Of a stretch of 64,000 nucleotides of DNA, positions 1,675-51,879 are shown in pieces. Positions within the stretch are counted from its first letter, which is position 1; the number at the start of each line of letters is the position of its first letter. The DNA comes from Deltaproteobacteria bacterium RIFCSPHIGHO2_02_FULL_44_16 (GTDB taxonomy: Bacteria > UBA10199 > 2-02-FULL-44-16), in NCBI GenBank assembly GCA_001798185.1, contig MGRM01000004.1, positions 56,264-120,263 of the forward strand. The letters are read 5' to 3'. The translations under genes were made by a program, and so were the position numbers. The notes beneath the pieces were generated by a model. That model was not told where the DNA came from, did no database searches, and saw only the letters and a program-made list of their open reading frames with translations.

Positions 1675-4600
1675 ATGAGCGACGATTCATTCTATCCTAC
1701 TGACGAAGAACTCAGCAAATCGAGCACTGGGCGCCGACGCCTTTCGGCAATCATGTTCACGGACATCAAAGGATTCACCACGATGATGGAACGTGATGAA
1801 TCGACCGCTGTTGGTCTTATTAAACTGTATCGCGACATCGTCCGCCGTCTGGTGCGTCTCCATGAAGGCGAAGAACGCGAAACGATTGGCGATGCCTTTC
1901 TCGTGATCTTTGAGAGCGCATTGCAAGCAGTCGAGTGTGCCGTTGCCCTTCAACAGGAGCTCGCTCGATTTAATAAAACTCGAGCTCCGGAAAAACAACT
2001 TTGGACACGTATTGGAATTCATGTTGGTGACATCATTGTCGAAGAAGGTTCTATTTTTGGAGAAGGAGTCAATCTCGCAGCGCGGGTTCAAACGCTTCCA
2101 CCTCCCGGCGGAATTACCATAACTCAACAAGTATGGGTTCAGATCAAAAACCGCGCTCGATTTCAAGTTCAAAAACTTGGTGTCCGAGAGTTAAAAAATA
2201 TCACGGACGTTCCCGATATCTATCGCGTTCTTTTTGACTCTGAAGCTCCTCCCATTCCCGAAACACGTCGTGAAAAAATCGAACGTCTTCTCAAATTCCC
2301 TCCCATTCGATGGGGAGTCCCCACCCTTACGATCCTTGTGAGCGCATGTTTTATCTACTCCTTCTTTTTCGCGACCCATATACTTCTCACCTCATCAGTG
2401 ACATTTTTATATCACGCTCCTCATCCCATTGATTCTTTATCAATCTCAGAGGCAGCAAAGCTGCAAAAATATATCAAGCTTATCAAGAAAGGTTCGAAAG
2501 TCATTCGGATGGAGATGGTCAATAAAAAAGGAATTCGTCCTGAAGACATCGAAGAATTTTGGTCTTTTCAGACAAAGAAGACTGCGCGCAGAGAATATCC
2601 CGTCATTGAATTTTCATATGCGAAAGGTCGCGTTTCTGAAAAACGAGTCTATGATGATTTCGGCATTCTTCAACATAAACTCCTTTTTAAAGAGCAGGGA
2701 CAAGTGGCCACGATTCATGATGCTTCAGGATTTGTTTCCACGTTGGAAAATCAAATTTCAAGTTTTGGATACCGCTTTGATGAACGTGGCTCGCCTATGC
2801 GTCAAGAAAACCGAAACGCCTTTGGAGCGCTTCGCAATGACGCTTTGGGCGTAGCGATTTATCTGTTCTCTTCTGATCAAAAGGGAAGAACTCTCAAACA
2901 AGAACATTATGACGCACTCGGAAATCTCATTGAAAACAAAGATGGCATTGCCACCATCACCTTTGAATATGATAATCATGGCTTTTTAAAAAAAGAAATT
3001 GCCACGGATCGTTATGGCACTCCAAAAGAAATGACCAAAGGTTATGCTCTTCTGGAAAGAATTTTCCACGTTTCGGGCAACATTAGTGAAGAACGTTATT
3101 TTGATCGCAATAGTTCTCCCATTGAAACCAACGATGGAATCTGCATCAAACGATTTCTTTTTTCCGAGGATGGGTTTCCGACAGAAGAAATTTCATTTAG
3201 TTGCGCAAATTCAGCAAAGACCAATCGTTTTGGTTGGGCTTCACGACGTTTTGTCTATGAAAACAAACAGCTTAAAGAACTTCTTTTCTTTGATGAAGAA
3301 AAAAATCCAACCGCCGATGCAACAGGCATTCATCTCATCCGCATCGAACATGATGCAAATGGTCGCATTGAAAGCCTTCATTATCATGACATCACCAATG
3401 CGCCGGCAGTGAATCATCAACAAATTCACGCCGTGCGCTATCGATATGATGACAAAGGACATCCAATCAGCAGAACCTCTTTAGGGAGAGATGAATCGCT
3501 GCTGATCAGCAGCGCCGGATACGCAGAAGTGCGATTAAAATATGACGATCGCGGAAACGTTACGGAGCAAGGTTATTTTGATACCGAAGGAAATTTCATC
3601 AACACCCATGAAGGTTATGCTCTCGTCAAAATTGAGAATGATTCTTTCGGAAATCAAATTTCTCGCAGTTATTATGGAAAAAAAGAAGAGCCTGCATCAT
3701 CTCGACGAGAGTTATGTCACGTCGTTTCATTTCAATATGATAAAAAAGGCGATGTCGCGCAAACTTCTTGCTTGGATGAAAAATTACAGCCAACACTGGG
3801 ACATAATGGCTGCGCTATTTCAAAAACAACGTATGATCAAGCAGGGAAATTGACTGTTTTTGAATGCTATGCGGCTGAAGGAAAACTCATCAATGACTCC
3901 ACCCGATTTTCTGTCCTCCACATCGATTATGACAAGCGTGGATATATGAGCGAGATTCAAGCATTTGACGCAGAGGGAAATCTTTCCGAACGTTATCAAG
4001 GAGCAGCAACCTGGCGTTTTAAATCGGATGCTTTTGGCAATCAAATTGAAATTGCTTTCTATAATAAAAGCAATGAATTGATGATGAATCCAAAATATCA
4101 TGCTGCCATTGTTCGCCGCGAATATGACGAACGCGGCAATGAAGCGCGAGCCGTGCTTCTGGATGAAAAAGAAAACCCGATCATCGGTATTTGGGGATAT
4201 GCAGAACAACGTTTAAAACATGATGAGCGTGGACATCGCATTTCGGAAGCGTATTTCGATGAAGCTGGGAATCCAGCGACCAATCGTATTGGGGTTCATG
4301 AATATCGCTGGACGTATGATGAACAGGGACGCGCGAGAGAACGGTACTATTACGGCAAAGATGGTCAACTCATTCTCAATAGTGAAGGTGTGGCAATGTA
4401 TCGATATGAGTTTGATGAATTTGGTCACATGAAACGCGTTCACTATTATGGAACACATCAAGAACTCGTGGTACATCGTCAGAAAAAAGCTGCCATCGAA
4501 GAGTTCAAAGTGGATGATCGTGGCAATACCATTCGCATTTCACGTTTTGATGAAGAAGGAATCTTTTGCCAAAGCAAAGAGTGTATCCCCATCACCGAAC

Positions 4601-5085
4601 AACAATTTGACACCAAGGGTCGTCTTCTGAAACGGAGTTTTCGCGATGCGCAATCCCAACCGATCGTCGATGAAAATAATGTTGGCGCTTATCTTTTTGA
4701 ATATGACACTCAAGGAAGAGTTGCTCTTGAAAAACTCTACAACGCTGCAGATGAACCGATGACTGACAAATTGAAGGTTCATCAATATCAGCTCCACTAT
4801 CGTCCTGATGCTGATGATGTCGTGTGGTATTCAACGTATGGCGACATGGAAGGAGCGCGCGCAACGGCAAAAGATGGTTCCTCAGTTCAAATTCATATGT
4901 ATGATGCTCTCTATCAACGAAAAAAAATAGCCACCGCAAATGTCACTTCATCTGGAGCCATTATGACTATTGATTGTTATGATGATCTCGATGTGAAAAT
5001 TTCGAAAAAAGATTGTGTGGTTCCATCTCAAATCTTGAACGAATTTGAAAAAATAAAACCTCAACTCTTAGTCGAGCGGAAGTGA
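1675..5085 (+). CDS. Class III adenylate/guanylate cyclase, one TM helix, ~880-aa YD-like repeat region
   Basis: N-terminal cyclase motifs (IMFTDIKGFT, ETIGDAFLVIF, GIHVGDI, GEGVNLAARV). Hydrophobic helix around aa 215-237. More than 20 copies of a [YF]-D-x-x-G core (YDDRGN, YDERGN, FDEFGH...). Confidence 0.8.
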   Translation: MSDDSFYPTDEELSKSSTGRRRLSAIMFTDIKGFTTMMERDESTAVGLIKLYRDIVRRLVRLHEGEERETIGDAFLVIFESALQAVECAVALQQELARFNKTRAPEKQLWTRIGIHVGDIIVEEGSIFGEGVNLAARVQTLPPPGGITITQQVWVQIKNRARFQVQKLGVRELKNITDVPDIYRVLFDSEAPPIPETRREKIERLLKFPPIRWGVPTLTILVSACFIYSFFFATHILLTSSVTFLYHAPHPIDSLSISEAAKLQKYIKLIKKGSKVIRMEMVNKKGIRPEDIEEFWSFQTKKTARREYPVIEFSYAKGRVSEKRVYDDFGILQHKLLFKEQGQVATIHDASGFVSTLENQISSFGYRFDERGSPMRQENRNAFGALRNDALGVAIYLFSSDQKGRTLKQEHYDALGNLIENKDGIATITFEYDNHGFLKKEIATDRYGTPKEMTKGYALLERIFHVSGNISEERYFDRNSSPIETNDGICIKRFLFSEDGFPTEEISFSCANSAKTNRFGWASRRFVYENKQLKELLFFDEEKNPTADATGIHLIRIEHDANGRIESLHYHDITNAPAVNHQQIHAVRYRYDDKGHPISRTSLGRDESLLISSAGYAEVRLKYDDRGNVTEQGYFDTEGNFINTHEGYALVKIENDSFGNQISRSYYGKKEEPASSRRELCHVVSFQYDKKGDVAQTSCLDEKLQPTLGHNGCAISKTTYDQAGKLTVFECYAAEGKLINDSTRFSVLHIDYDKRGYMSEIQAFDAEGNLSERYQGAATWRFKSDAFGNQIEIAFYNKSNELMMNPKYHAAIVRREYDERGNEARAVLLDEKENPIIGIWGYAEQRLKHDERGHRISEAYFDEAGNPATNRIGVHEYRWTYDEQGRARERYYYGKDGQLILNSEGVAMYRYEFDEFGHMKRVHYYGTHQELVVHRQKKAAIEEFKVDDRGNTIRISRFDEEGIFCQSKECIPITEQQFDTKGRLLKRSFRDAQSQPIVDENNVGAYLFEYDTQGRVALEKLYNAADEPMTDKLKVHQYQLHYRPDADDVVWYSTYGDMEGARATAKDGSSVQIHMYDALYQRKKIATANVTSSGAIMTIDCYDDLDVKISKKDCVVPSQILNEFEKIKPQLLVERK

Positions 5086-6153
5086 GACCGTCAAATCACT
5101 TCCTCCTTTTGTTTTCTTTAAAAGAACCTTTCCTCCATGAGCGCGAATAAGATGTTCAACAAGTGCAAGCCCAAAGCCTTCGGAAGAAGGCGATGGTTTT
5201 CCCTCTCCTTCATCGCGAAAGGTAATGGCCACCAAAGGCCGTTTCCCTTCATGCATCTGTTCAATCGACACTGACAACGTTCCTCCGTCCCGATTCTGTT
5301 TAATCCCACGATCCAAAAGATGAAAAAAAGCGCGCTCCATATGCGAACGATGCATTGGAATTTTTAACGATTTGGCTTTAGGATCAATCTCAATCATCAC
5401 ATGTTTTTTCTGCGCCTTTGATTGCAATGAAGTCGTTAACTTTTCAAAAATTGTCCCCACCGAAATAGACTCCTTCTTCACACTTGTCTCTTGCTGCTGC
5501 AGTTGAACAATTCTGGAAATATCATCCAACAGAGAAGCAAGATGATCGGTATGTTCACGAATACTTGCCAGAAATTTTTTCCGATGAATTTCATCCATCA
5601 GCACATCATCTAAGACTTGTGAAACACTATGAATGACTTCAACGGGAGAGCGCAATTCATCTGTAACCGTGCTCATAATTCCCGGAACAATCGTCTCAAT
5701 TTCGCCCTTTAATTTTTTACTCTCAATCGCAATTTTCTTAAAAATGTCGGAAACCGAACGAAGTCGTCCGGATAAATGCATGGCATAGTTCCGATAGATC
5801 ATCATTGCAGCGCGCGGGTTGTGCTGAAGAAATTGTTCCAATTTTTCCGAAGGGAGAACTAAAAGAACTGTTTGCTCGAGCGCAGTGACTCGCGCTGAAC
5901 GAAAAGAGCGATCCAGAAGCGCCATCTCACCAAAAAATTCTCCTGGTTCAAGCACACCTAAAATCTCTTCATCATCATGATGATCTTTTTTGCTGACCAT
6001 CACCTGTCCTGATTCGATAAGATAAAGCGCATCACCGCGATCGCCTTCATTAAAAACAAGATCGCTTCCACGATACTCACATCGCTGACAAAGCAAACGA
6101 AGTTCTTGAATGCGATCAACTTCCAGCCCAGAAAAAAGTTTCATTTGTTCCAT
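5068..6153 (-). CDS. cNMP-binding domain protein fused to a histidine-kinase-like module with a degenerate H-box
   Basis: CAP/cNMP motifs (GDRGDALYLIESG, FGEMALLD, RSARVTA). HisKA-like segment TDELRSPV has Asp where the phospho-His is expected. HATPase G1/G2 boxes present (DEGEG, GFGLAL). Confidence 0.75.
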   Translation of the reverse strand: MEQMKLFSGLEVDRIQELRLLCQRCEYRGSDLVFNEGDRGDALYLIESGQVMVSKKDHHDDEEILGVLEPGEFFGEMALLDRSFRSARVTALEQTVLLVLPSEKLEQFLQHNPRAAMMIYRNYAMHLSGRLRSVSDIFKKIAIESKKLKGEIETIVPGIMSTVTDELRSPVEVIHSVSQVLDDVLMDEIHRKKFLASIREHTDHLASLLDDISRIVQLQQQETSVKKESISVGTIFEKLTTSLQSKAQKKHVMIEIDPKAKSLKIPMHRSHMERAFFHLLDRGIKQNRDGGTLSVSIEQMHEGKRPLVAITFRDEGEGKPSPSSEGFGLALVEHLIRAHGGKVLLKKTKGGSDLTVSLPLD

Positions 6154-9321: not shown

Positions 9322-11130
9322 TTATCGTCCAAAAATGTCTTTTATCTTTTCTTTGACGTCTGGAACATCTGGCTTTGTCTCTTCAGGAATACTTGAAGGA
9401 ATGCTGGGCATTATTTTTTCTTGAATGCGCTGTTGCACTTCTTGTTTCAGCGCCTTCTGCGCTGCTGTGGCCGCAAGCTCTTTCACATATCCCACATCAG
9501 GCAACACAAGCGGTTGCATGATTGTCCCCGTCAATTGGAGCGGAATCACAAACTTTCCCGACGCATCGACAAGAGAAGAACGAATCCGCTCGTTGGGAAG
9601 AAGTCGCGCTGAAAGTTCAGGGGGAAGCAAAAATCGTCCTTTGAGATCTAATGAACGATCAAACCCAACACTCCCTTGAAAAAGAGCTGCATAGTCTTGA
9701 TGTTCGAGTTGCATCTGATCCACAAGGAGTCGTCCTTTTTGAATCGTAAAAGGAAAACGAATCTCTCGAAATGGCGTCCCTTCCACTTGACGACCCGGTA
9801 GATCGACCGTTTGCGGCGTTCCTACAGATGCAAGCTTTAGAATATTGAGAAGCTCATCAGAAAGAATTTGTTGCACCAAATTCATACTTTGAATTTTCCC
9901 ATCGACGAGCCGCACCTCGCCCGCTCCATTCACATGCTCTACCTCTTTACCCACCACACGCTCTCCGTGAAGATGAAGTGAAACATCACCAGCACCGGTC
10001 ATAGCAGAAACAAGAGGTGTAATATTTATTTTTGTCAGTTGTGCGCGAACATCATAACGCGAGCCAGGGGCTAACCCCACGACACCTTCAGCATGACCAG
10101 TTCCTTCAAAAATTTCGAAATCTAAATGTGCAAGCTTGGCTTGTTCTGAAGTTGCGCTCCAAGATGCTTTGAGATTTTTTAACTCCCACACATCATATTT
10201 GACGTAAGCTGAAGACAACGAACCAGCAAATTGCGGTGCAGTTGCAGCTCCATGAATTTCCGCTTGAAGTTGCAGTTTTCCTGAAACAACCGGTTTCTCT
10301 TTGTTTGAGGTCAATGAAGCGAGCGCACCTAAATCCAGCTCAGATGCTTTTATCTCACCATCAAGGGATGGAGCTTCTGTCTGAAATCCTTTGACCATAA
10401 ATGCAAACGTCAGTTTTTCACTTGCAAGATGTAATGTCCCCTCCCCCACACGAACCGTATCTTCAGGTAGATTCAGCCATACCGGAGTGTTCATCTGAAG
10501 AGGAATGTTTTGATATCGAAGTGCGAGCTCAACTTCGATAGGTTTGCTGGGATCAGCAAGTTGAATATGTGAAAGCCGAAGATCAAGAGGCGCAATAATA
10601 TCTTCTTTTACGGGAGAAACCGTTTGATCGGTAGAATACAACGATGCTCCGGTCAGTTCAATTTCTTCAATCAGAATACGATTCATCCACTTCGGAAGCG
10701 TCGTCGGTGTTTGGGATAAAGTCTCATTTTCTTTGTGCAGAAGAAGGTCTGCAATATTCGTTCCCGATGCGTTTTTGATCAGACGCACCGAAGGTTCTTG
10801 CAGATGCAAGGATGCTATCACTTTTCCATGAAAAAGACTTTTCAGATGAACTTGAAAATCCATCTTCTCTTGGGTCAGGACCGTCGCTCCTGCAAAAGCG
10901 GACTGCGGCGCCGGAAGATGCTTGAGACTCAGTTGAGAGACACGAACTCCGAGATAAGGCCAGAAGGAGAGTTCAAGTCGTCCGATTTCAACATCAGCCC
11001 TGAGAGATTTTTCAGCCACCTTTTCAATGTCATCGCGATAATCATTGATGTCGACGATAAAAGGGAGAGCAATGACTGCCGCAAAAAGAAGCATAAAAAA
11101 TGCAGCGATGCCGATAAGAATCTTTTTCAT
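9322..11130 (-). CDS. AsmA-family outer-membrane assembly protein
   Basis: N-terminal anchor MKKILIGIAAFFMLLFAAVIALPFIVDINDYRD, then a long beta-rich body typical of AsmA. Confidence 0.65.
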   Translation of the reverse strand: MKKILIGIAAFFMLLFAAVIALPFIVDINDYRDDIEKVAEKSLRADVEIGRLELSFWPYLGVRVSQLSLKHLPAPQSAFAGATVLTQEKMDFQVHLKSLFHGKVIASLHLQEPSVRLIKNASGTNIADLLLHKENETLSQTPTTLPKWMNRILIEEIELTGASLYSTDQTVSPVKEDIIAPLDLRLSHIQLADPSKPIEVELALRYQNIPLQMNTPVWLNLPEDTVRVGEGTLHLASEKLTFAFMVKGFQTEAPSLDGEIKASELDLGALASLTSNKEKPVVSGKLQLQAEIHGAATAPQFAGSLSSAYVKYDVWELKNLKASWSATSEQAKLAHLDFEIFEGTGHAEGVVGLAPGSRYDVRAQLTKINITPLVSAMTGAGDVSLHLHGERVVGKEVEHVNGAGEVRLVDGKIQSMNLVQQILSDELLNILKLASVGTPQTVDLPGRQVEGTPFREIRFPFTIQKGRLLVDQMQLEHQDYAALFQGSVGFDRSLDLKGRFLLPPELSARLLPNERIRSSLVDASGKFVIPLQLTGTIMQPLVLPDVGYVKELAATAAQKALKQEVQQRIQEKIMPSIPSSIPEETKPDVPDVKEKIKDIFGR

Positions 11131-14227: not shown

Positions 14228-15376
14228 ATGATGCTTGAACGTCTCCAAACATTAAAAAACCTGAATCATTCCAGCTGCTTTCTCTGGGGCCCCCGGCAGG
14301 TCGGAAAGACCACGCTCCTCAATACTCTTTTCCCTAATACCCTCACCTTTAACCTCCTGGACCCAAGGCTCTATGAAGAATTCATCCTCAACCCCTCCCT
14401 TCTTGAGGAGCGGGTTTTGGCAACTCCCCAAAAAGGGCTTCCGGTCATCATCGATGAAGTTCAAAAAATCCCCAGACTCTTGGATGTCGTTCAAGACATG
14501 ATCACCAAACACGGTACCCAGTTTATCCTCAGCGGGTCGAGCGCTCGGAAACTCAAGCGAGGCGCCGGAAATCTTTTGGGAGGTCGCGCCATTCGCCATG
14601 AACTCTTTCCCCTCGTGTACAAGGAGGTGCCCGACTTTGATCTGCTTCGCGCTCTAAACCATGGCCTCCTCCCTCATCATTATCTGCATGATAGCCCGAG
14701 AGATCTGCTTCATGCCTATGTTGGCGATTACCTCAAAGAGGAAATTTTTGCTGAAGCCCTGACGCGTAATCTCCAGGCATTTTCAAAATTTCTCGAGGCA
14801 GCGGCCTTCAGCAATGGTGAACAGGTCAATTTCACGAATATCGCCAGCGAGTGTGGGGTCTACTCCAGTACGGTACGAAATTATTTTGAAATTTTGGAAG
14901 ATACGCTGATCGGTCACTTTCTTCCGGTCTTTCAAAAAAGACCAAAACGCCGTGTGGTAAAATCCCCAAAATTTTATTTCTTCGATGTTGGCATCGTCAA
15001 TTTTCTCCGCAAACGAGGAACGATTGAGTTTGGAAGCGAGACATTTGGAAATGCGTTTGAGCATTTCATCTATCAAGAAATCCTCGCGTATAGCCACTAT
15101 TCACGGCTTCATTACCCCATGGCCTTTTGGCGGACGAGCTCCCAGATCGAAATCGATTTTATTCTGGGCGATCATGAGGTGGCGATCGAGGTGAAGGGGA
15201 CCAAGCTCGCACAAAGCAAACACTTGAAAGGGCTCAAAGCCTTTCGCGATGAATATACAATTCGAAAATCAATTCTCGTCTCTCTCGATGATTCACCGCG
15301 GCTGACAGAAGGGATTCACGTGCTTCCTTGGAAAACTTTTCTGGAGCAGCTTTGGTCGGGGAAGATTATGGGGTGA
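14228..15376 (+). CDS. AAA+ ATPase with DUF4143 C-terminal domain
   Basis: Walker A GPRQVGKTT, Walker B VIIDEVQ, and a C-terminal EIDFIL...IEVK segment typical of AAA_14/DUF4143 proteins. Confidence 0.7.
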   Translation: MMLERLQTLKNLNHSSCFLWGPRQVGKTTLLNTLFPNTLTFNLLDPRLYEEFILNPSLLEERVLATPQKGLPVIIDEVQKIPRLLDVVQDMITKHGTQFILSGSSARKLKRGAGNLLGGRAIRHELFPLVYKEVPDFDLLRALNHGLLPHHYLHDSPRDLLHAYVGDYLKEEIFAEALTRNLQAFSKFLEAAAFSNGEQVNFTNIASECGVYSSTVRNYFEILEDTLIGHFLPVFQKRPKRRVVKSPKFYFFDVGIVNFLRKRGTIEFGSETFGNAFEHFIYQEILAYSHYSRLHYPMAFWRTSSQIEIDFILGDHEVAIEVKGTKLAQSKHLKGLKAFRDEYTIRKSILVSLDDSPRLTEGIHVLPWKTFLEQLWSGKIMG

Positions 15377-17882: not shown

Positions 17883-19151
17883 GTGGAAAAATCAAATAAA
17901 TCGAAGCTTCAAGAGATCATCGCTTGCAAAAAGATCGAAGTCCTAGAGCTTGAAACACTTCGAATCAACGCACGAAATGCCCGTCTCCACGACGACCACC
18001 AGATTGCTCAGCTAATGAAGAGTATCGATAAATTCGGGTTCACGGTTCCGATCCTCATTGACGAAAATAAAATGGTGATCGCCGGGCACGGTCGTCTTGA
18101 AGCTTTGAAGAGGCTTGGCCACAAGCTGGCTCCGGTCATCCTCATCAATCACTTAACTGAGAATGAAAAACGCGCCTATATCTTGGCCGACAATCAGATC
18201 CCCATGCTTGCGGATTGGGACCTCACCCTCTTAAGGGAAGAGTTGGATTTCTTAGATCAAGAAGGCTTCGAACTTGAAGACATCGGATTCGGAGATGAAG
18301 AGATAGAAAATACTTTTGCTGCAGAACTGGAAGAATATTCGCAAGGTCTGACGGATGAAAATGAAATTCCATCTCCGCAAAAACAAAAAACTCAGCTGGG
18401 TGATATCTATCAATTAGGTTCTCACCGACTCATGTGTGGCGATGCGACTAAGGCTGACCACGTAGAAAAACTCCTAGGCGATGCCAAACCTTTATTGCTG
18501 GTAACCGATCCTCCTTATGGTGTGAGCTATGAACCCGAATGGCGAAACGAAGCGGCGGAAAAAGGAAAGATTGCTTACGCTGCACGTGCCTTGGGGAAAG
18601 TTGAAAACGATGACCGCTTTGACTGGACCGAAGCTATCCATCTCTTTGGCGGAGACGTTGTTTATGTCTGGCATGCCGGCGTTTATGCTGCCCAAGTCGC
18701 CGAGAGCCTTACCCAAGCCGGTTATGAAATACGCTCGCAGATCATTTGGGCAAAACAAGGTTTAGTCATTTCCCGAGGCCACTATCACTGGCAGCATGAA
18801 CCCTGTTGGTATGCGGTAAAGAAAGGAAAGACTGGCCATTGGTCGGGAGATAGAAAGCAAACAACTCTTTGGCAAATTCCGAATCGTAATCCACGCGGTG
18901 GTGAAATCGAAGATTCCAATACGGAACATAGCACCCAAAAGCCCGTTGAATGCATGCGCCGCCCAATCGTGAACAACACCAAGCGAGGAGATAGTGTTTA
19001 CGATGCTTTTCTGGGCAGTGGCACCACGTTGATTGCTGCCGAAAGTACGCAGCGAGTTTGTTACGGAATGGAAATTGATCCCCGCTACTGCGACATGGCC
19101 GTCAAACGCTGGGAAGATTTTACCGGCAAAGAGGCTCAACGCTTGAGGTAG
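17883..19151 (+). CDS. ParB-like nuclease domain fused to an N6/N4 DNA methyltransferase
   Basis: ParB box (VIAGHGRLEA), DPPYG catalytic motif, and AdoMet motif VYDAFLGSGTT. GTG start. Confidence 0.8.
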   Translation: MEKSNKSKLQEIIACKKIEVLELETLRINARNARLHDDHQIAQLMKSIDKFGFTVPILIDENKMVIAGHGRLEALKRLGHKLAPVILINHLTENEKRAYILADNQIPMLADWDLTLLREELDFLDQEGFELEDIGFGDEEIENTFAAELEEYSQGLTDENEIPSPQKQKTQLGDIYQLGSHRLMCGDATKADHVEKLLGDAKPLLLVTDPPYGVSYEPEWRNEAAEKGKIAYAARALGKVENDDRFDWTEAIHLFGGDVVYVWHAGVYAAQVAESLTQAGYEIRSQIIWAKQGLVISRGHYHWQHEPCWYAVKKGKTGHWSGDRKQTTLWQIPNRNPRGGEIEDSNTEHSTQKPVECMRRPIVNNTKRGDSVYDAFLGSGTTLIAAESTQRVCYGMEIDPRYCDMAVKRWEDFTGKEAQRLR

Positions 19152-21741: not shown

Positions 21742-23235
21742 ATGTCGAAACCAACTACTTTGGATCGCATGATTTCTTATTTTAATCCCAAGGCAGGTGC
21801 CGATCGCGCTCGATACCGTCTTTTGGAAGCGAATCTCCGGTCAATGGAAAAGAGGCGCTATGAGGCTGCAAGCAATAGTCGACGGACCAGTGGATGGATT
21901 GCAAACGACACGAGCTCGAATGCTGAAATAGGAACAGCGCTCCATCGTCTTCGAGCACGATCACGGGATCTTGTCCGCAATAACCCTTATGCCAACCGGG
22001 CAGTTCAGGTGATTTCTTCCAACGTTGTCGGTGCTGGTATTATTCCTCAACCCAAAAACAAAAGAATGGATGAACTTTGGAGCGCATGGGGAGACACAAC
22101 ACTTTGCGATTCTTTAGGTCAGCATAATTTCTATGGGATCCAGGCTCTTGCGATGAGGGAAATCGTTGAATCCGGTGAAATTTTAATCCGCCGCAAAATA
22201 CTGAAGCCAAATACTGGGTCTCCTCTTCCACTTCAATTGCAAGTTTTGGAGGGAGATTTCATAAACGATACCCAAGACAGGCTTCTGGATAATGGTCATT
22301 TTATTCATCAAGGAATTGAGTTTGATCGAAGCGGCCTACGAGTTGCCTATTATCTCTATGTCCAACATCCCGGAGAAAGCCCTCTTTTAGGTACTGGTCT
22401 TGAGACCATCCGAGTTCCCGCAAGTGAAATTCTTCATATCTACCGCATTGATCGGGCTGGCCAGATTCGCGGAGTCCCGTGGGGAACTCCTACCCTTCTG
22501 AAACTGAAAGATTTTGATGAATATGAAGATGCCCAACTCATCCGGCAAAAGATTGCCGCTTGCTTTGCAGCCTTTGTGACGGAACCGGACCCGCCAAGCG
22601 ATCATCATCCCGACAAATCGGGTATTGATAAAAATGTTGAGCCTGGTCTGATTTATGAACTGGCACCGGGAAAACAAATCACCTTCGGCAATCCCCCAAC
22701 GATTGGCGCGGACTATGAGCCCTATGCGACCATCAATTTAAGAGCTGTCGCTACCGGATTCGGTGTCACCTACGAAGCACTCACCCAAGATTACTCCAAG
22801 GTAAATTTCTCCAGCGGTCGGATGGGACACATTGAATTCCATCGGAACATTGATCAATGGCGTTGGCTGATGTTGATCCCTGGCCTTTGCGAGGAAGTAT
22901 GGAACTGGTTTGTGGAAGCTGCAGAACTTGCCAATCTCATCAGCGCAAAACGAATCAAGAAAGCAACATGGACGCCGCCCCGGCGTGAGATGATTGATCC
23001 CGTGAAGGAAACCGAAGCTCAGATCAAGGCCATTCGTGGAGGACTGAAGACGCTCTCAGAAACTATTCGTGAACAAGGTAACGATCCCGAAAAACAATTT
23101 GAAGAAATGAAGCAAGATAATGAATTGCTCGATAAATACCGATTGCAACTGGACAGTGATGCCCGGAAAATGAGCGCCAATGGCATGCAGCTCGGACAAA
23201 ATGGAACACAGGATCAAAATGGAAATGTAGAATAA
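21742..23235 (+). CDS. Portal protein (lambda gpB family)
   Basis: ~497 aa directly after gpW, with RRYEAASNSRRTSGW and NNPYANRAV segments typical of lambda-type portals. Confidence 0.8.
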   Translation: MSKPTTLDRMISYFNPKAGADRARYRLLEANLRSMEKRRYEAASNSRRTSGWIANDTSSNAEIGTALHRLRARSRDLVRNNPYANRAVQVISSNVVGAGIIPQPKNKRMDELWSAWGDTTLCDSLGQHNFYGIQALAMREIVESGEILIRRKILKPNTGSPLPLQLQVLEGDFINDTQDRLLDNGHFIHQGIEFDRSGLRVAYYLYVQHPGESPLLGTGLETIRVPASEILHIYRIDRAGQIRGVPWGTPTLLKLKDFDEYEDAQLIRQKIAACFAAFVTEPDPPSDHHPDKSGIDKNVEPGLIYELAPGKQITFGNPPTIGADYEPYATINLRAVATGFGVTYEALTQDYSKVNFSSGRMGHIEFHRNIDQWRWLMLIPGLCEEVWNWFVEAAELANLISAKRIKKATWTPPRREMIDPVKETEAQIKAIRGGLKTLSETIREQGNDPEKQFEEMKQDNELLDKYRLQLDSDARKMSANGMQLGQNGTQDQNGNVE

Positions 23236-23472
23236 AAAACCCCACCGATCACGCTCATCTCGCTCATAGCGAAATTACGAGTGACCGATGGGGCAAAGCG
23301 CTCTTCGGTCTTCCACTTCTATAGTGGATGACCAGGGTGATTGATCTGGACTCCCTTCAAAGCACGCCTTGTACCTTGCGACACAAGACACTCTCCTGGT
23401 TTCCGTGAAAACCAGGACTCTGGCTTGAAGAACTTTTTACTCCACTTAAGGGAGTGCTGGGGGCGGAACCGA

Positions 23473-23578
23473 CCGCGCGCACCGAAACCCATCATTGTTG
23501 TTGCGGTTGTCAGGGTTGTCGTTGTTGCGATTAGCCGCGCGCGCATTCCTCGCATTATTGTTGAAGGAACCGCCGCCG
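23473..23578 (-). repeat. DGR template repeat (TR)
   Basis: 106-bp gap-free match to VR 25137-25242 (87/106). All 19 mismatches are at TR adenines (T on the + strand). Reads as AAC/AAT-rich codons. Confidence 0.9.
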
Positions 23579-23584
23579 GTGCGA

Positions 23585-24659
23585 TCAATCACCCTTTGGG
23601 ACTCTTTTAAATGCAATCTCAGGCAAAATCAACTCTCTTAATCGCATGGTATCGGCATGTTTTGCGTGGCCAATCCAGGATTGTATAGACTGATTGATCT
23701 GCTTCCACTCAATGGTGCTTTCTCCGTAAAGAAATTGAAATTTTTTTAATTGTCTTTTGAATCGGAGGACATTTTCCCGTTTCAGGCGGCGATGTTCTGA
23801 AGAAATAATCAATCCCAAAAATGGCATCCCTTTATCCGTCGAAAAAATACGACACTTTTTTTCATGAAGCTTTAGGTGAAGCATCGCAAGATACATTTGA
23901 ATGTGACATTTTATATCCCATAAAAATTGTTTGTCGTCGTGTAAAACAGAGAAGTCATCCATGTAACGCAGATAATATCGACACCCTAATTGCTCTTTCA
24001 TGAAATGGTCGAAGCCGTTCAAGTAAATATTGGCAAAAAACTGGGATGTTAAATTGCCTATAGGGATACCTGTTTTGATGGAGTGATGGAGTGATGGAGT
24101 GATGGAGTGATGCAAGGACAGTGCCGTCTCTACCATATTTCTGAGAAGAATCCAAAATCTTCCTGATCAGCCAAAGAGTATCCTTGCAAGCCACTTTCTT
24201 CTCAATCAGTTCGAGCAAGACATCATGATTGATACTGGGAAAATATTGTTGGATGTCGCATTTCAAGGCGTATCGACATTTCTTGGCAAAGCTTTGAAAA
24301 CGATTTATCGCAACATGGGTTCCTTTCCCTTTACGTGTTGCATAGGAATCGTAAATGAACGTGGGATCAAAAATCGGCTCAAGAATATTGTGAATGGCGT
24401 GATGTACCACCCGATCTCGATAGGGAGCAGCGCTGATGATACGCTTCTTGGGTTCAAAAATCTGGAAGTGATGGTACGTTCCAGGCTCATAGCTTTTGGT
24501 CGCTAATTGATGGTGGAGATCCCATAACTCATTCTCGAGAGAAAAATTGAATTTTGCCGTTGAATATTTGAAACGCTTATTCTTCTGCGCGAGCTGCGCA
24601 GCGCACAAGAGATTTTGAAAGGAAATAATTCTTTCATAAAGATGGTTGTGTCGTCTCAT
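23585..24659 (-). pseudogene. DGR-type reverse transcriptase, split into two frames inside an octanucleotide repeat
   Basis: ORF 24659->23955 carries RT motifs 1-3 (PYRDRVVHHAI, CDIQQYFPSI). ORF 24136->23585 carries IGNLTSQ, YMDDF and PFLGL. The frames differ by 1 nt at 24076-24112. Confidence 0.85.
24076..24112. repeat. Tandem octanucleotide repeat (gatggagt x4.5) inside the RT gene
   Basis: Read directly from the sequence: units at 24077-24084, 24085-24092, 24093-24100 and 24101-24108, plus a partial gatg. Confidence 0.95.
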
Positions 24660-24675
24660 GAACAGAGTGGGTTCT

Positions 24676-25017
24676 TTACGCTTTTCCTTGTTGTTTGATC
24701 CAGCCGCCTAATTGCATGCCAATCTCGTTGATCATTTTGGAAATGACCTCGTAGCGATGAAGGTTGATGAGTTTCAAATCTTTGCAAAGACGAACATAAT
24801 AGCGAATCTTTTCCAATTTTATATTGGCTTGTCGAAGAAGAGGAAGTTTAGCCTGTGAGTAACAGGCTTCGAGTAGAATTTCTAAGGTATCAAAGCTGGC
24901 CATTTCCAGACGTTCCCCCAACATATATCGTTGGGACTTGGGAAAGGTTGAAACAGCCGGCACCACATAAAGCAAAAAATCGTAGACCTTGGTAATAATG
25001 AGGGGAGTATTATTCAT
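24676..25017 (-). CDS. avd: Avd-like accessory variability determinant (four-helix-bundle family)
   Basis: 113 aa with YDFLLYVVPAVSTFPKSQRYMLGERL, sitting between the DGR target and the RT. Confidence 0.8.
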   Translation of the reverse strand: MNNTPLIITKVYDFLLYVVPAVSTFPKSQRYMLGERLEMASFDTLEILLEACYSQAKLPLLRQANIKLEKIRYYVRLCKDLKLINLHRYEVISKMINEIGMQLGGWIKQQGKA

Positions 25018-25133
25018 TCATGAGCACATCTCATGTTTTTTGAAAATTTTCAAAAAAATACCCCCGCTTCGCGGGGGCAAGGATAAAAGAGTAAAAGGAC
25101 AAAGAGTTATTATTTAGAGTCCTGGGGGGGCAA

Positions 25134-25979
25134 CTACCGCGCGCACCGAAACCCAACAACGCCGTAGCGGAGGTCAGGGGAGTCGTAGTAGCGAAAAGCC
25201 GCGCGCGCATCCCCCGCACTATCGTAGAAGGAACCGCCGCCGAGTTCTACAAATTGCTTATCAGGATCGGTCAATGGATTTTTTGGGTCTTTACTCGACA
25301 TACGATCATAAAAACGTTCCTCATAAGCATCGCTTGTAGTCTCCCAAACATTTCCTGCCAAATCAATAATTCCAAAACTATTCGCTCGTTCAGGATGTTT
25401 TCCACAAACAGGAGCCGTTGTTCTCGCACCATTATCCCAAATAATGGCCTTATTAATTGGTGTTCCATATTCATCGGTTCCATTTGGCCCCTTTGAAGCT
25501 CTTTGTCTTTCAGCTGCCGTCATCAAACGGGCTCCTAGAGACGCACAATAGTCCACCTTCTCAGAAAGAGTCAGACCAACAACTGGGAAATCTGGCCCTT
25601 TCCTATTTTCAGAAAAATCAGGAACGGATTTTTTAGATTCCGAATTTGTTTCAATTGTAGTGCATTGGCTATCCACAAAAATTTTAGCTGCACTCTTACG
25701 CAATTGATCTAATGTTTTTTCTTGAACTGTTTGAGTGGAAGAACCTCTACTGCAACCAGAGAGTACTGCAGTTAATTGAGATCCCGCTTTGTCTAAAAAT
25801 GCTTGATATTCCCCAACAGAAACTTCATGCTCTTGAAGCTGAAAAGCGGACACCGTGACAGTAACCGTCTTCCCCGTGTTTGTTGTTTCATCAGACTCAC
25901 CATTTGTGGAACCCATCTGAAAGGTTCCTTCAGGAATAGGACGAAACTCATTCGAACAGCTTTTCGCTTCTCCAGCCAT
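25134..25979 (-). CDS. DGR target protein, FGE/C-type-lectin-fold (SUMF1-like) with C-terminal variable region
   Basis: GTFQMGS...VTVSAFQLQEHEVSVGEYQAF, GNVWETTSD, and C-terminal GGGSF...GFRCAR. The last 35 codons are the VR. Confidence 0.85.
   Translation of the reverse strand: MAGEAKSCSNEFRPIPEGTFQMGSTNGESDETTNTGKTVTVTVSAFQLQEHEVSVGEYQAFLDKAGSQLTAVLSGCSRGSSTQTVQEKTLDQLRKSAAKIFVDSQCTTIETNSESKKSVPDFSENRKGPDFPVVGLTLSEKVDYCASLGARLMTAAERQRASKGPNGTDEYGTPINKAIIWDNGARTTAPVCGKHPERANSFGIIDLAGNVWETTSDAYEERFYDRMSSKDPKNPLTDPDKQFVELGGGSFYDSAGDARAAFRYYDSPDLRYGVVGFRCAR
25137..25242 (-). repeat. DGR variable repeat (VR)
   Basis: See TR. Followed 3' (25117-25136) by an IMH-like G/C-rich stretch that differs from the TR-flanking copy, including a 1-nt indel. 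Confidence 0.9.
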
Positions 25980-26251
25980 AAAATGCTCCTCTCTGAAATT
26001 TATCGATCATAAAAATTCCCTGGAATCATTCAACAGGGGTCTTAATACCTGATATATTATCGTCTGGATCTGGAAATTGTTGCTACCGCCAGCTCAAAAA
26101 TTTTGAAGCTTATCCACGCCATAGCAAATAACCCTACGAAATCAAAAGCAGTTTTTTAGGTTCATCCAAGTAAAATTTGTCATCATAATCTTCATTTTTT
26201 CCAAAAATACCGATTGGAACCCATCTTTCCTAGCCTCAATATAGCCAGAAA

Positions 26252-28186
26252 ATGGACACGATTGCCGAGACAATTCCAACAAATAAACTGAAAGCAAATG
26301 TGCCCATTCTCTCGTTTCGCGCAGCCTTTGAACCCTCCACAATCGATTCCGAAAAGAGAAGCGTTGTCGTCCGCTGGTCCACGGGAGCTAAAGTTTTGCG
26401 CGGTGGATTTTTTACCGAACCTTTTCATGAAGAACTCTCGCTCCACAACGAATCGGTTCGCATGGACCGTTTGCGAAGCGGTGCTCCTTTATTGAATTCT
26501 CATGCCAGTCAACATTTATCCGATCAAATCGGGGTGGTTGAAGACGCCTGGCTCCAAGATGGGGCTGGCTATGCCCGCGTGCGATTCAGCGGCAGGCAAG
26601 ATGCCGGTCCCATCTTCCAGGATGTCAAAGATGGCATCGTTCGGAATGTTTCAGTCGGGTATCGCGTCTATAAATATAAGGATGTGAGCCAGGAGGGAGA
26701 TCCCGTCAAAACACTCCGAGCTGTGGATTGGGAACCGATGGAAATTTCGCTCGTGCCTATCGGAGCCGACGCCGGTGCCAACATCAGATCCTTCGACAGG
26801 CTCAGGACGGAGTCTGAAAAAGAAAATGTGAACGAATGCGAAATTGAAGTTCGCGCTCAAACCAAAAGAATTGAGGAGAGTATGATGCACATCGATATCG
26901 AGACAATTAAAAAAGAGACGTTAGAAGCAGAGCGTAAAAGGATTTCTGAAATCACCACATTAGTCCGAAAATTTAATCTCGATGAGGCGTTTTCGGCATC
27001 GCTCATCGATCAAACTGTGTCTGTTGAAGAAGCCCGTTCCCAAATTTTAAATAAGCTGGCTGAGCGCACTGAAAAAGAGGGAAACATTCGAAACCATGTG
27101 GATGTTCATGTGACCCGTGATGAAGCGGATACCCGCCGTTCTGGCATGATCGAATCCTTACTTCATCGATATGATCCAAAAACGAATAAGATCAGCGAGA
27201 AAGGGACTCCTTACATTGGCATGAGCCTTCTTCGCTTAGCTGAAGAAGTCCTCGTACGAAATCATATTTCTATCCGTGGCTTGACCAAGTCCGATATTGC
27301 TCAGCGCGCTTTTCTCTCTACCAGTGATTTCCCAGCTGTTCTTGCGAATGTTGCAAATAAAACCTTGAGGCAGGCGTATGAGCTCGCACCTCAAACATTC
27401 CGTCCTTTTGTACGACAAGTCTTTCTTCCGGATTTCAAGGAAGTTTCTCGTATTCAATTAAGCGAAGCCCCCAAGTTGGAGAAAGTGAACCAGTCAGGAG
27501 AATTTAAATATGGGGTTTTGAGTGATGCGGCTGAGAAATACAGCCTAGGAACGTTTGGAAAAATCATCGCCATCAACCGCCAGGTGGTGATCAATGATGA
27601 CCTGGAAGCCTTCACCAGAATTCCCGCCCTGCACGGAAGAGCTGCCGCTGATCTTGAAAGTGATCTGGTCTATGCGGTCTTCATGGCGAATGCCGTATTG
27701 GCCGATGGTATTCCGCTTTTTCATGCCACGCATACGAACTTGGGAACTCCAGGTGCGATCAGTGAAGTGACGTTGGGTGAAGGCCGCAAGCTCATGAGAA
27801 GACAATCCGGCCTTCAAAGAGGAAGAGACAAACAACTCCTGAATATTCAAGCTCGCTACTTGATCGTTCCTGCAGCACTGGAAACGTTAGCTCAAAAACA
27901 ATTGGCAGCGATTATCCCGAACAGTTCTACGGAGGTAAATCCTTTTTCAGGACTCTATACCTTGATTGCGGAACCGAGACTCGATGATCACTCCGCTACC
28001 GCTTGGTATTTGGCTGCGGATCCTGCACAGATTGACACCATTGAGATCGCCTACCTGCAAGGACAAGCCGGTGTCTATACGGAAAACCGACAAGGTTTTG
28101 AAATTGACGGCCTTGAGATTAAAGCTCGTTTGGATTGCGCGGTGAAGGCGATCGACCATCGAGGTCTTTTGAAGAACGCAGGATAA
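26252..28186 (+). CDS. Prohead protease (S78/HK97-type) fused to major capsid protein
   Basis: N-terminal protease part (LLNSHAS, NVSVGYRV, EISLVPIGADAGA). C-terminal capsid part (SDFPAVLANVANKTLRQAY..., GKIIAINRQVVINDDLEAF). Confidence 0.75.
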   Translation: MDTIAETIPTNKLKANVPILSFRAAFEPSTIDSEKRSVVVRWSTGAKVLRGGFFTEPFHEELSLHNESVRMDRLRSGAPLLNSHASQHLSDQIGVVEDAWLQDGAGYARVRFSGRQDAGPIFQDVKDGIVRNVSVGYRVYKYKDVSQEGDPVKTLRAVDWEPMEISLVPIGADAGANIRSFDRLRTESEKENVNECEIEVRAQTKRIEESMMHIDIETIKKETLEAERKRISEITTLVRKFNLDEAFSASLIDQTVSVEEARSQILNKLAERTEKEGNIRNHVDVHVTRDEADTRRSGMIESLLHRYDPKTNKISEKGTPYIGMSLLRLAEEVLVRNHISIRGLTKSDIAQRAFLSTSDFPAVLANVANKTLRQAYELAPQTFRPFVRQVFLPDFKEVSRIQLSEAPKLEKVNQSGEFKYGVLSDAAEKYSLGTFGKIIAINRQVVINDDLEAFTRIPALHGRAAADLESDLVYAVFMANAVLADGIPLFHATHTNLGTPGAISEVTLGEGRKLMRRQSGLQRGRDKQLLNIQARYLIVPAALETLAQKQLAAIIPNSSTEVNPFSGLYTLIAEPRLDDHSATAWYLAADPAQIDTIEIAYLQGQAGVYTENRQGFEIDGLEIKARLDCAVKAIDHRGLLKNAG

Positions 28187-43848: not shown

Positions 43849-44796
43849 ATGAGCTCAGAACTACCAACCTCGATGCCTACTCCTTCTTGTCGAATCCTTT
43901 CACTAGATGGGGGAGGAGCCAAGGGATTCTACACCTTAGGAGTGTTGAAAGAAATCGAGGCGATGGTCGGTCGACCACTTTGTGAGAGTTTTGATCTCAT
44001 CTTCGGTACGAGCACAGGAGCCATCATCGCTGCGCTTTTAGCATTGGGTCATAAAGTAGATGATATTCACACTCTCTATAAAGAACACGTGCCGGCCATA
44101 ATGCGTCGTCGCACTCCGCGAGGAAGGTCCAAAGCCTTATCTCATCTCGCAAAAATAGTTTTTGGTAATCGCAGCTTTGCCGACGTCAAAACCGGTGTGG
44201 GAATCGTGGCAACACGATGGGCATTTGAAAAACCGATGATTTTCAAAGCCAGCGTGGCACAAGCTCATGGTCGGCATAGCACTTTCGTCCCGGGCTTTGG
44301 TTGTACGATTGCGGATGCAGTGAGGGCTTCCTGTTCGGCATATCCATTTTTTAAGAGACCAATTATCACAACTAGCAAAGGAGAAGAGATTGAATTGATC
44401 GATGGCGGTTATTGCGCGAACAATCCAACCCTTTATGCCATTGCCGATGCAGTTATTGCGCTCGAAAAGCCTCGTTCCGATCTGCGCGTTGTCAGCATTG
44501 GTGTAGGAGTATATCCGGAGCCAAAGCGCTGGGGTTTGTCTTGGCTGATCAAACGCTTCGTAAGCGTGCAACTTCTCCAAAAAACCCTAAACGTTAATAC
44601 ATTCTCAATGGAACAATTGCGGACGATTCTCTTCAAAGATATTCGGACCGTTCGCATTAACGATACGTTCGAGCGTCCTGAGATGGCGACTGATCTGATG
44701 GAATCTGATCTTAGAAAACTGGGCATGCTTTACCAGCGTGGCAGCGAGTCGTTTGCGAAACACGAAGCGGAACTGAAGGAAATGTTGGTGCAATAG
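43849..44796 (+). CDS. capV: Patatin-like phospholipase (CBASS CapV-like effector)
   Basis: LSLDGGGAKG oxyanion box, GTSTGA nucleophile elbow, and DGGYCANNP catalytic Asp motif. Confidence 0.75.
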   Translation: MSSELPTSMPTPSCRILSLDGGGAKGFYTLGVLKEIEAMVGRPLCESFDLIFGTSTGAIIAALLALGHKVDDIHTLYKEHVPAIMRRRTPRGRSKALSHLAKIVFGNRSFADVKTGVGIVATRWAFEKPMIFKASVAQAHGRHSTFVPGFGCTIADAVRASCSAYPFFKRPIITTSKGEEIELIDGGYCANNPTLYAIADAVIALEKPRSDLRVVSIGVGVYPEPKRWGLSWLIKRFVSVQLLQKTLNVNTFSMEQLRTILFKDIRTVRINDTFERPEMATDLMESDLRKLGMLYQRGSESFAKHEAELKEMLVQ

Positions 44797-44828
44797 GAAT
44801 GTAGGAATTTAACTCCGGAGATAATTGA

Positions 44829-45719
44829 GTGGCTATTCCCGAATCACAGCTTGAAATCTGGGCGCATCAAGGTTCGATCACGCAGTCGAGCAATACATAC
44901 ACGACGATAAAACGAGCGCTCGAAGCATCCGATACCAAGTATGCCGACAAAACCTACGAGGTATTCCTGCAAGGCTCGTACGGCAACGACACCAATATCT
45001 ACGCGGAAAGCGATGTGGATGTCGTCATTCGTCTCGATTCTGTCTACTACTATGACATTACAGCTCTGACAGCCGGCGAACAAGCGCGATTCAACGCGGC
45101 GCTTATTCCAGGAACCTATTCATACGCGACCTACAAAGCTGACGTGATCGCTGCCCTGCTCAAGAGTTTTGGCACGGTGGACGTGAAGCCCGACAAAAAA
45201 GCGGTCAAGATCAAATCCAGTGGAAGCAGGCGTAACGCCGATGTTGTAGTCGCCGCTGAATTTCGGCGTTACTTTTCGGGACTCTTAGGTCCACAATACG
45301 AGCCCGGGATTTGCTTCTTCAACTCCAGCGGCGACCGAATAGCCAACTATCCGAAACAACATTCGGCAAACTGCACGGCGAAGCATCAGGCGACGCATGG
45401 GTGGTTTAAACCGATGGTGAGAATCCTTAAAAATATGCGTAGCAGGCTCGTCGATGACGGTTCGATTGAACAGGGAAGCGCCCCGTCGTACTTTCTCGAA
45501 GGCCTGCTCTACAATGTTCCCAACGACAAGTTTGGAGGAAGCTACAACGATACGTTCGTGGCGGCCGTAAACTGGATACTTCAGGCCGAACGCAATAATT
45601 TAGAATGTGCGAACAAGCAGCACTACCTTGTGAGGGATTTTGATGCAACGTGCTGGCCCTACGGTAACTGCGATCGTTTTCTTAATGCGCTCACACAACT
45701 CTGGAATGAGTGGTCGTAA
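44829..45719 (+). CDS. SMODS/CD-NTase-type nucleotidyltransferase
   Basis: FLQGSYGNDTNIYAESDVDVVI (GS...DxD) and a later NADVVVA acidic motif. GTG start 9 nt after GGAG. Directly downstream of patatin. Confidence 0.6.
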   Translation: MAIPESQLEIWAHQGSITQSSNTYTTIKRALEASDTKYADKTYEVFLQGSYGNDTNIYAESDVDVVIRLDSVYYYDITALTAGEQARFNAALIPGTYSYATYKADVIAALLKSFGTVDVKPDKKAVKIKSSGSRRNADVVVAAEFRRYFSGLLGPQYEPGICFFNSSGDRIANYPKQHSANCTAKHQATHGWFKPMVRILKNMRSRLVDDGSIEQGSAPSYFLEGLLYNVPNDKFGGSYNDTFVAAVNWILQAERNNLECANKQHYLVRDFDATCWPYGNCDRFLNALTQLWNEWS

Positions 45720-45791
45720 TACTAAACGACAATCCCTCAATCAGCTTCAAATCTCTATCCGCTCTACCTCCGATTAAAGTGCCCCGCATCT

Positions 45792-51872: not shown

Positions 51873-51879
51873 TTGAACC

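Follow-up and report, generated by a model that had tools for sequence, protein, structure and literature searches.

The 64-kb stretch of contig MGRM01000004.1 from Deltaproteobacteria bacterium RIFCSPHIGHO2_02_FULL_44_16 (the window; coordinates below are window positions) includes a prophage with a diversity-generating retroelement (DGR) lying antisense among its head genes. This is a genuine DGR cassette that diversified its target gene in the past. Its reverse transcriptase (RT) gene is now split between two reading frames at a perfect 8-nt tandem repeat. The repeat has three or four copies in genomes that are otherwise the same, neither length restores the frame, and the variable repeat (VR) of the target is identical in every assembly that contains it. 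The RT was probably inactivated by an incidental and very recent strand slippage, as a first step of decay or a freezing of a useful VR, and not by an evolved switch.

The cassette and its template and variable repeats

The elements of the cassette follow one another on the minus strand in the order target, avd, RT and template repeat (TR). A sequence-only reading of this DNA had proposed that order, and the open reading frames (ORFs) and domain matches bear it out. The core features are:

25134-25979, minus strand: target gene, 281 amino acids (aa), a single FGE-sulfatase/C-type-lectin-like domain (PF03781, 3.7e-34, residues 15-281)
25137-25242, minus strand: VR, the last 35 codons of the target, identical to TR at 87 of 106 positions
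24676-25017, minus strand: avd, 113 aa, intact (NF033474 DivGenRetAVD, 113.7 bits against a cut-off of 80; Pfam bAvd, 3.6e-20)
24113-24659, minus strand: 5' segment of RT (fingers, motifs 1-2a), RVT_1 profile positions 8-107, in the frame of the ATG at 24659
24076-24112, minus strand: tandem repeat with an 8-nt unit (coding strand CACTCCAT), containing 4 complete units, or 4.6 copies as counted by Tandem Repeats Finder, with 100% matches and a score of 74
23585-24075, minus strand: 3' segment of RT (IGNLTSQ, YMDD, thumb), RVT_1 positions 113-205, +1 relative to the 5' segment
23473-23578, minus strand: TR, 28 adenines, 13 AAY codons

An independent computational realignment of VR and TR runs ungapped over 106 nt and gives 19 mismatches, all 19 at TR adenines, as had been claimed. 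The adenine is replaced in VR by T ten times, by G seven times and by C twice. By our own arithmetic, the chance of all 19 mismatches falling on A is about (28/106)^19, or ~1e-11. This is the only adenine-biased TR/VR pair in the 64 kb, and no second or remote VR or other TR-like copy was found within the window. The translations given earlier for both repeats are correct, with VR forming the C-terminus of the 281-aa ORF. The ~20 nt that follow each of the two repeats are related to each other, the alignment having a 1-nt indel, and here too it agrees with the sequence-only reading. By eye, they match at ~15 of 20 positions after a shared GC-rich end. On the paradigm of phage BPP-1, they would correspond to the initiation of mutagenic homing sequence (IMH) and its TR-side counterpart (IMH*):

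25116-25136, minus strand: IMH-like sequence 3' of VR, TAGTTGCCCCCCCAGGACTCT, related with one indel of 1 nt to its TR-side counterpart
23452-23472, minus strand: IMH*-like sequence 3' of TR, TCGGTTCCGCCCCCAGCACTC, related to the VR side and conserved in L093
25050-25079, minus strand: GC-rich hairpin CCCGCGAAGCGGG, 9 pairs with a GAA loop, then a T-run, ~35 nt past the IMH-like sequence

L093 is the closest cassette found, on a groundwater metagenome contig. It also has the CCCCAG motif of the IMH-like sequence, and it has the hairpin and T-run at the equivalent place. From its form, this hairpin is terminator-like, and possibly it is a DGR target-site hairpin.

The Avd protein, placed at 25017 to 24676 by the sequence-only reading, passes the NCBIfam equivalog model and matches the PHROG family annotated as the Avd protein of DGRs at 7e-25. 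That reading had proposed family hidden Markov models (HMMs) as a check on both proteins. The check succeeds for Avd (113.7 against 80), but for the RT all NCBIfam matches are below their cut-offs and RVT_1 is matched in two pieces. Neither Pfam nor NCBIfam has a dedicated DGR-RT HMM. DGR RTs are recognized by an SQ dipeptide in motif 4, in the form (I/V/L)GxxxSQ, plus YxDD (PMC3521204). The window RT has both DGR-clade marks, since the IGNLTSQ and YMDD reported earlier are found in the translations. When repaired to two repeat units (352 aa), it matches PDB entry 8ub7_A at 5e-50 and phrog_1423 at 1.3e-121. The PDB entry is named only "Reverse transcriptase", and we take it to be bRT, the BPP-1 enzyme. 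The clade to which this RT belongs has thousands of proteins. A profile search of genome contigs with the RT alignment gives 80 relatives at 42-55% identity, and the window's own organism is not among them. Adenine-biased TR/VR pairs (at least 80% adenine-specific mismatches) occur in 59 of 82 fetched loci of RT relatives, mostly in the same order of target, avd, RT and TR.

The split reverse transcriptase gene and its repeat alleles

The sequence-only reading took the RT, 24659 to 23585, as a single coding sequence in a complete DGR. That interval is 1075 nt long, which is not a multiple of 3. Within it, the ORFs 23955-24659 (234 aa) and 23585-24136 (183 aa) overlap in different frames, and the break between them is the 8-nt repeat. 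A complete element needs an intact RT ORF, and the RT is out of frame in the window and in every other assembly found (all of ~16 contigs), so neither the single coding sequence nor the completeness stands. The repeat is the sole perfect tandem repeat in the 64 kb and also the top-scoring one. When the gene is rebuilt with 1-8 units, the frame is open only at 2, 5 and 8 units (352, 360 and 368 aa); with 1, 3, 4, 6 or 7 units, the protein ends before the catalytic motifs.

The repeat sits in a variable loop directly before GIPIGNLTSQ. Among 15 aligned relatives the loop varies in both length and sequence. The two-unit form has the normal length, and relative to the solved RT 8ub7_A the loop is a 17-residue insertion. 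Neither the 8-nt repeat nor a split RT is found in any of the 82 RT relatives. Short in-frame proto-repeats do occur in the equivalent loop of L093 (7 nt x 2.4, at 10530-10546 of that locus) and L085 (8 nt x 2.2). More generally, other RTs of the clade (L093, L085, L064) have 7-8-nt loop repeats of 2-7 copies that are in frame or degenerate. The loop is therefore prone to slippage and may evolve largely in that way. Outside the loop there is no sign of decay. At 88 alignment columns the 15 relatives are invariant, and the repaired RT matches them at all 88. Its private losses number 0, against 0-10 for the relatives themselves. Several other RT relatives are truncated (P0020, P0024, P0029, P0044 and P0047) and were considered as further loop splits, but they are cut at contig ends instead.

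The allele data come from assembled contigs, that is, from consensus sequences. The Avd protein appears on at least 23 public metagenome contigs, and those fetched match the window at 99.9-100% identity along as much as 20 kb. Three of them (L001, L003 and L006) differ from the window only by a single 8-nt gap, equal to one repeat unit; for L001 this means 0 mismatches in 20,350 nt. The three-unit allele is found on six contigs (ERZ4903137, ERZ4903072, ERZ27254842). The four-unit allele is found on at least ten, namely the window, four designated ERZ2856xxxx, ERZ27254763, ERZ27254846, ERZ4903185 and two from Joint Genome Institute (JGI) samples. Both alleles occur in each of two accession batches. 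One contig (L005, from Logan SRR2090155) ends inside the repeat at window position ~24083, one base past the point where the three- and four-unit alleles diverge, which hints that both coexist in that run. A search of the literature by the accessions of these samples gave nothing relevant.

Protein and pattern searches give the same picture. The truncated products of the three-unit (197 aa) and four-unit (234 aa) alleles are both present in a collection of 15 billion proteins by exact look-up. The in-frame forms of 352, 360 and 368 aa are absent from it, as are the forms with 1, 6 or 7 units. The best full-length RT match in a search of 5.8 billion clusters is only 71-73% identical. An exact-pattern scan for alleles of 2-5 units found none in the IMG/VR viral contigs and one further four-unit copy, with the same VR, in the JGI metagenome contigs. 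All contigs that include VR have the same VR, and the same is true of TR. The target's 90% cluster is limited to three members, among which VR does not differ. No heterogeneity at the TR-adenine positions was seen in VR at the level of assemblies. Since only the three- and four-unit alleles and a single VR were found, every assembled copy has the RT OFF and VR fixed. With VR identical in all assemblies, nothing indicates current diversification.

Five of the fetched contigs (L004, L006, L008, L009 and L010) end inside VR or TR, at 25181-25204 and 23556-23574 of the window. Each of these break points is within ~25 nt of a ATGCGCGCGCGGCT run common to the two repeats. Tangling of the assembly graph there is unlikely because TR and VR have no exact word of more than 19 nt in common. 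The five breaks are most simply read as a drop in coverage at the (GC)n run, with minority VR variants as the alternative. As all five adjoin the run, we did not retain them as a sign of VR heterogeneity.

Why the reverse transcriptase is out of frame

By the BPP-1 paradigm, a complex of RT and Avd would copy the TR RNA into cDNA with misincorporation opposite adenines, and the cDNA would then replace VR, guided by the IMH. The 19 adenine-only differences between TR and VR would be the footprint of past retrohoming. Strand slippage would then have expanded an 8-nt proto-repeat in the length-tolerant RT loop from an in-frame two units to three and four. Either length would truncate the RT before its catalytic motifs, so that working RT protein is presumably lacking, the element is turned OFF and VR stays as it was. 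One further slippage, from three units to two or from four to five, could reverse the silencing, which is reversible in principle because the lesion is a repeat of polymorphic copy number.

An incidental slippage is the explanation we favor. It is supported by the repeat being short and specific to this lineage, by there being no ON allele or VR variant among the copies seen, and by the existence of a decayed relative cassette (L177). Several points weigh against it. Neutral drift of a dead gene should also reach two or five units, and neither was seen, although the contigs may sample a single clone in which the repeat mutated only once or twice. The avd gene, TR, the RNA elements, the target ORF and the conserved RT residues are all intact, which is equally expected of a switch that is selected and periodically reactivated. 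The two alleles in each of two accession batches hint at ongoing slippage. Finally, assemblies give a consensus in which minority in-frame alleles or VR variants would not show. Such a switch, in which slipped-strand phase variation of the repeat toggles the RT between ON (2, 5 or 8 units) and OFF (3, 4, 6 or 7), is possible but distinctly less probable. The element would hypermutate in rare bursts, successful VRs would then be frozen, and the assemblies would show the dominant OFF phase. The repeat has suitable properties, being perfect and having a unit length not divisible by 3, and 20-kb sequences that are otherwise identical differ in its length alone. A single step would turn either observed OFF allele into an ON allele, no decay is seen elsewhere in the RT or the cassette, and the Logan contig ends inside the repeat beside the point of allele divergence. 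Both in-frame lengths should be tolerated because the loop, with its 17-residue insertion against the solved RT, varies in length and sequence among relatives. However, no ON allele appears in ~16 contigs or in the protein collection, and VR is invariant everywhere examined. The tract of 3-4 units is also short, as typical contingency tracts are longer than that. The repeat is not conserved in any of the 82 relatives, so there is no sign of its maintenance by selection, and there is no precedent, since the literature searched has no report of repeat-mediated switching of a DGR RT, whether described as phase variation, slipped-strand or frameshift.

Two further readings do without a silenced RT. 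In one, the enzyme would still be produced despite the frameshift, through ribosomal or transcriptional recoding in the repeat or as two pieces, and the DGR would be active at a low level. For the three-unit allele, a -1 slip of tRNA-Lys on UCA_AAA_C right after the repeat would restore ...SK-TGIPIGN..., and for the four-unit allele an ATG at 24136 opens an ORF that spans all the catalytic motifs. But the alleles need opposite shifts (-1 for three units and +1 for four), so no single recoding signal can serve both, and we rejected programmed frameshifting as a general solution on that ground. With only 4 nt, the A-run is short, and no stimulatory structure was identified. A two-piece enzyme was likewise rejected, since the C-terminal frame of the three-unit allele has no start codon upstream of IGNLTSQ; in addition, the ATG of the four-unit allele has no Shine-Dalgarno sequence. 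VR is without variation as well, and we regard continued activity by any of these routes as very improbable. The other reading keeps the complete DGR that was first proposed and makes the frameshift and the length difference an artefact of sequencing or assembly. All other parts are intact, and tandem repeats can in principle be miscalled. However, the tract of 29-37 nt is shorter than the reads and than the k=141 of several assemblies, the same two alleles come out of different pipelines (MEGAHIT k141, scaffolded "METAG", JGI and Logan), and no assembly has an in-frame length. These results contradict this reading, to which we give the least credence of all.

Element boundaries, target protein and related systems

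The flanks and the remaining elements of the cassette are as follows:

26252-28186, plus strand: prohead protease/major capsid fusion gene (NF045541, 723 bits against a cut-off of 525; phrog_4523)
25980-26251, minus strand: intergenic region at the 5' end of the cassette, oriented divergently to the capsid gene, with a promoter-like site and a putative Shine-Dalgarno sequence GAGAGGAG
23583-23595, minus strand: upstream strand of a 13-bp duplex bracketing TR, overlapping the RT stop codon; perfect 13-nt inverted match to 23334-23346
23388-23424, minus strand: hairpin 3' of TR with CCAGAGU ... AGAGUG flanks, matching positions 1-38 of Rfam RF03028 (RT-7), E=2e-4
23334-23346, minus strand: downstream strand of the TR-bracketing duplex, pairing with 23583-23595
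23234-23293, minus strand: strong predicted intrinsic terminator for the DGR transcript, made up of a long hairpin rich in GC and a U6 run after it, z=-5.0, conserved in L093
21682-23235, plus strand: portal gene, lambda-type (PF05136; phrog_21, 2.4e-104)

The family matches of the flanking genes confirm the position between portal and protease-capsid genes, on the opposite strand, that had been read from the sequence. The gap between the two genes is 3017 nt in the window. The capsid fusion protein led to 73 related phages, in which the gap is -22 to 251 nt, with ~700 nt in three of them, and none of the 73 has an RT, Avd or target homologue. The cassette is thus a self-contained antisense module of ~3 kb inserted between portal and capsid. 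A blastn search with it against 50,697 phage records gave no match. L093 is 70% identical to the window in DNA over 1970 nt (blastn), from the 3' end of VR (25164) through avd, RT, TR and ~240 nt of non-coding sequence. The homology stops at 23236, one base past the portal stop codon. Because it runs that far, the real 3' boundary of the element is ~23234, and not 23452 where the sequence-only reading had put it; the conserved DGR RNA elements and the terminator continue to that point. The U-run of the terminator abuts or overlaps the portal stop codon. On the 5' side, a promoter-like site at 26033-26006 (TTGAAT-16-TATGAT), proposed from its match to the consensus only, is ~27 nt upstream of the target ATG.

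The pairing that brackets TR recurs with different sequences in L093, L071, L083 and L013. The hairpin at 23388-23424 covaries in L093, L071 and L022, and its region folds with z=-4.47. For 207 of 278 Avd-type DGRs, a study reported stem-loops on the 3' side of TR together with a distal duplex that brackets it (bioRxiv 10.1101/2023.10.23.563531). The 3' RNA elements of the window correspond to these features in kind, and the 13-bp duplex does so in position as well. The resemblance to the RT-7 RNA of Rfam extends to the first hairpin with its CCAGAGU...AGAGUG flanks, but covers only 38 of 191 model positions at 26-28 bits against a gathering threshold of 116.8, so that the window RNA is not a member by Rfam's criterion.

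The target was described in the sequence-only reading as having an FGE/C-type-lectin fold and no signal peptide, and the Pfam match and the structure model agree with this. By inspection of MAGEAKSCSNEFRPIPEG, no signal peptide is present. In a sequence search of the PDB, the best solved relative is human FGE at 9e-15. An AlphaFold (AF2) model built on 16 relatives has a predicted local distance difference test score (pLDDT) of 69 and a predicted template-modeling score (pTM) of 0.68. Its top Foldseek matches are FGE structures (1.8e-8, probability 1.0, TM-score ~0.5), and no viral structure in BFVD resembles it at E<=1e-3. The domain carries an insertion of ~55 aa at about residues 64-118, with two cysteines, which in the alignment of target relatives is common to P0129 and P0143-P0145. 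Only ~20 proteins are related to the target at 40-51% identity, all of them stand-alone FGE domains. They are hypervariable at exactly the codons of the window's VR and are therefore DGR targets too. Their contexts are chromosomal or mobile-element, without phage structural modules; in one case an integrase and a Tn3 transposase precede target and avd, and in another the target stands alone beside a Y1 transposase.

Whether the target decorates the virion or is a factor expressed from the lysogen had been left open. We lean toward a cell-type factor expressed from the lysogen because there is no BFVD match, the relatives are in non-phage contexts and there is no signal peptide, all of which is negative evidence. 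A part in the virion was set aside on evidence that is likewise only negative, namely the empty BFVD search at E<=1e-3 and the chromosomal or mobile location of the nearest relatives.

Some of the target relatives differ in architecture. Many of the closest ones (P0127, P0128, P0130-P0135, P0138 and P0140) have an extra Asp-rich N-terminal extension of ~100 aa (MKIxYG...DGILD...), which has no Pfam match and no signal peptide and is absent from the window target. More distant relatives have TIR domains fused to the FGE domain. L177 (8001-9700, in a metagenome-assembled genome labeled "Deltaproteobacteria") is a decayed relative cassette in which the target is frameshifted near VR and residues 1-18 of Avd are fused directly to residues 187-345 of the RT. 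The end of that deletion is in the same RT loop that holds the 8-nt repeat in the window. Its TR and VR have only 21 of 27 mismatches at adenines.

The prototype DGR of BPP-1 (mtd-avd-TR-brt) and the window cassette have several features in common. Both have adenine-specific TR-to-VR differences, a C-terminal VR in a C-type-lectin-fold protein, an IMH-like sequence with a GC-rich hairpin 3' of VR, Avd, and an RT with (I/L)GxxxSQ and YMDD. The structured RNA 3' of TR and the distal duplex bracketing TR are also in common, as described for DGR RNAs (bioRxiv 10.1101/2023.10.23.563531). The window differs in its gene order, with TR after RT, and in its target, a stand-alone FGE-type domain rather than the tip of a tail fiber, as well as in the antisense position in the head module. 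The RT loop before GIPIGNLTSQ is 17 residues longer and has the frameshifting repeat.

The cassette of L093 (contigs L093/L094) is a chromosomal sister of the one in the window. Its RT (P0001) is 71% identical, the order is the same, 20 of 21 TR/VR mismatches are at adenines, and the post-VR and RT-7-like hairpins are the same, with compensatory changes. Unlike the window cassette, it is not in a phage, lying between a toxin-antitoxin pair and tig-clpP-clpX-lon. The RT is intact (346 aa), with only the 7-nt x 2.4 in-frame repeat in its loop, and the body of its target (233 aa, no Pfam match) is not homologous to that of the window.

Inactivation of a DGR at the RT has been seen before. The DiGReF survey (Schillinger et al. 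2012, PMC3521204) described DGRs with an inactivated RT and intact TR and VR, for which the authors inferred very recent inactivation. The window is like them in having a frameshifted RT and a TR/VR adenine pattern that is still clean. It differs in that the lesion is a perfect 8-nt repeat, in three or four copies among otherwise identical genomes, with VR fixed. The likeness to simple-sequence-repeat contingency loci, such as phase-variable type III mod genes (e.g. PMC3498834), is in the perfect intragenic repeat whose unit length is not divisible by 3, and in a copy-number polymorphism among otherwise identical genomes that toggles the reading frame. Unlike those loci, the window has 3-4 units, no observed ON allele and no conservation of the repeat in relatives, and the gene affected encodes a mutator enzyme rather than a surface or restriction-modification function.

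About 30,000 DGRs have been catalogued, of which most appear active, especially the phage-borne ones, and the latter usually diversify tail proteins (PMC8144416). Three features of the window cassette are uncommon, namely the antisense insertion in a head module, a target that appears to be of cellular type and the silencing of the RT through a repeat of polymorphic copy number.

To our knowledge, DGRs are the most extreme natural systems of protein diversification, and we know of little understanding of how and when they are turned off. The window locus shows a clean natural case of a DGR just after its silencing, with the cis elements and conserved RT residues intact and the polymorphic repeat as the only lesion. 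If in-frame alleles proved to be coupled to VR variation, the repeat would add a layer of regulation that is new, with a mutable switch in control of a mutator. Even without a switch, it remains of use that the cassette moved between chromosome and phage as one module and that its head-module position, with a non-tail, cell-type target, is unusual. An RT loop that is a hot spot of slippage also matters for the annotation or engineering of DGR RTs.

The wider prophage has several other genes of note. A defense island occupies its far end (43849-53013). It contains an oligonucleotide cyclase of a cyclic-oligonucleotide-based antiphage signaling system (CBASS) at 44829-45719 (PADLOC, 2.7e-125) with a patatin phospholipase effector at 43849-44796 (7.5e-163), a type III methyltransferase at 45792-48401 (1.4e-268) with a ResIII helicase/restriction endonuclease at 48394-51399, and a PDC-S02/YhcG nuclease at 51880-53013. 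A large serine recombinase at 57081-58853 probably marks the end of the prophage. At the left edge there is an AAA_14/DUF4143 ATPase at 14228-15376 (PADLOC candidate PDC-S01, 7e-54), and a ParB-N/N6_N4 methyltransferase fusion at 17883-19151 lies just upstream of the terminase. Outside the prophage, the endonuclease IV of the host has named relatives at only ~55% identity, in metagenome-assembled genomes labeled "Deltaproteobacteria bacterium". Among the host genes, 1675-5085 encodes a 1136-aa protein with an adenylate/guanylate cyclase domain and RHS repeats, and it is adjoined by a histidine kinase that binds cyclic nucleotide monophosphates (5068-6153).

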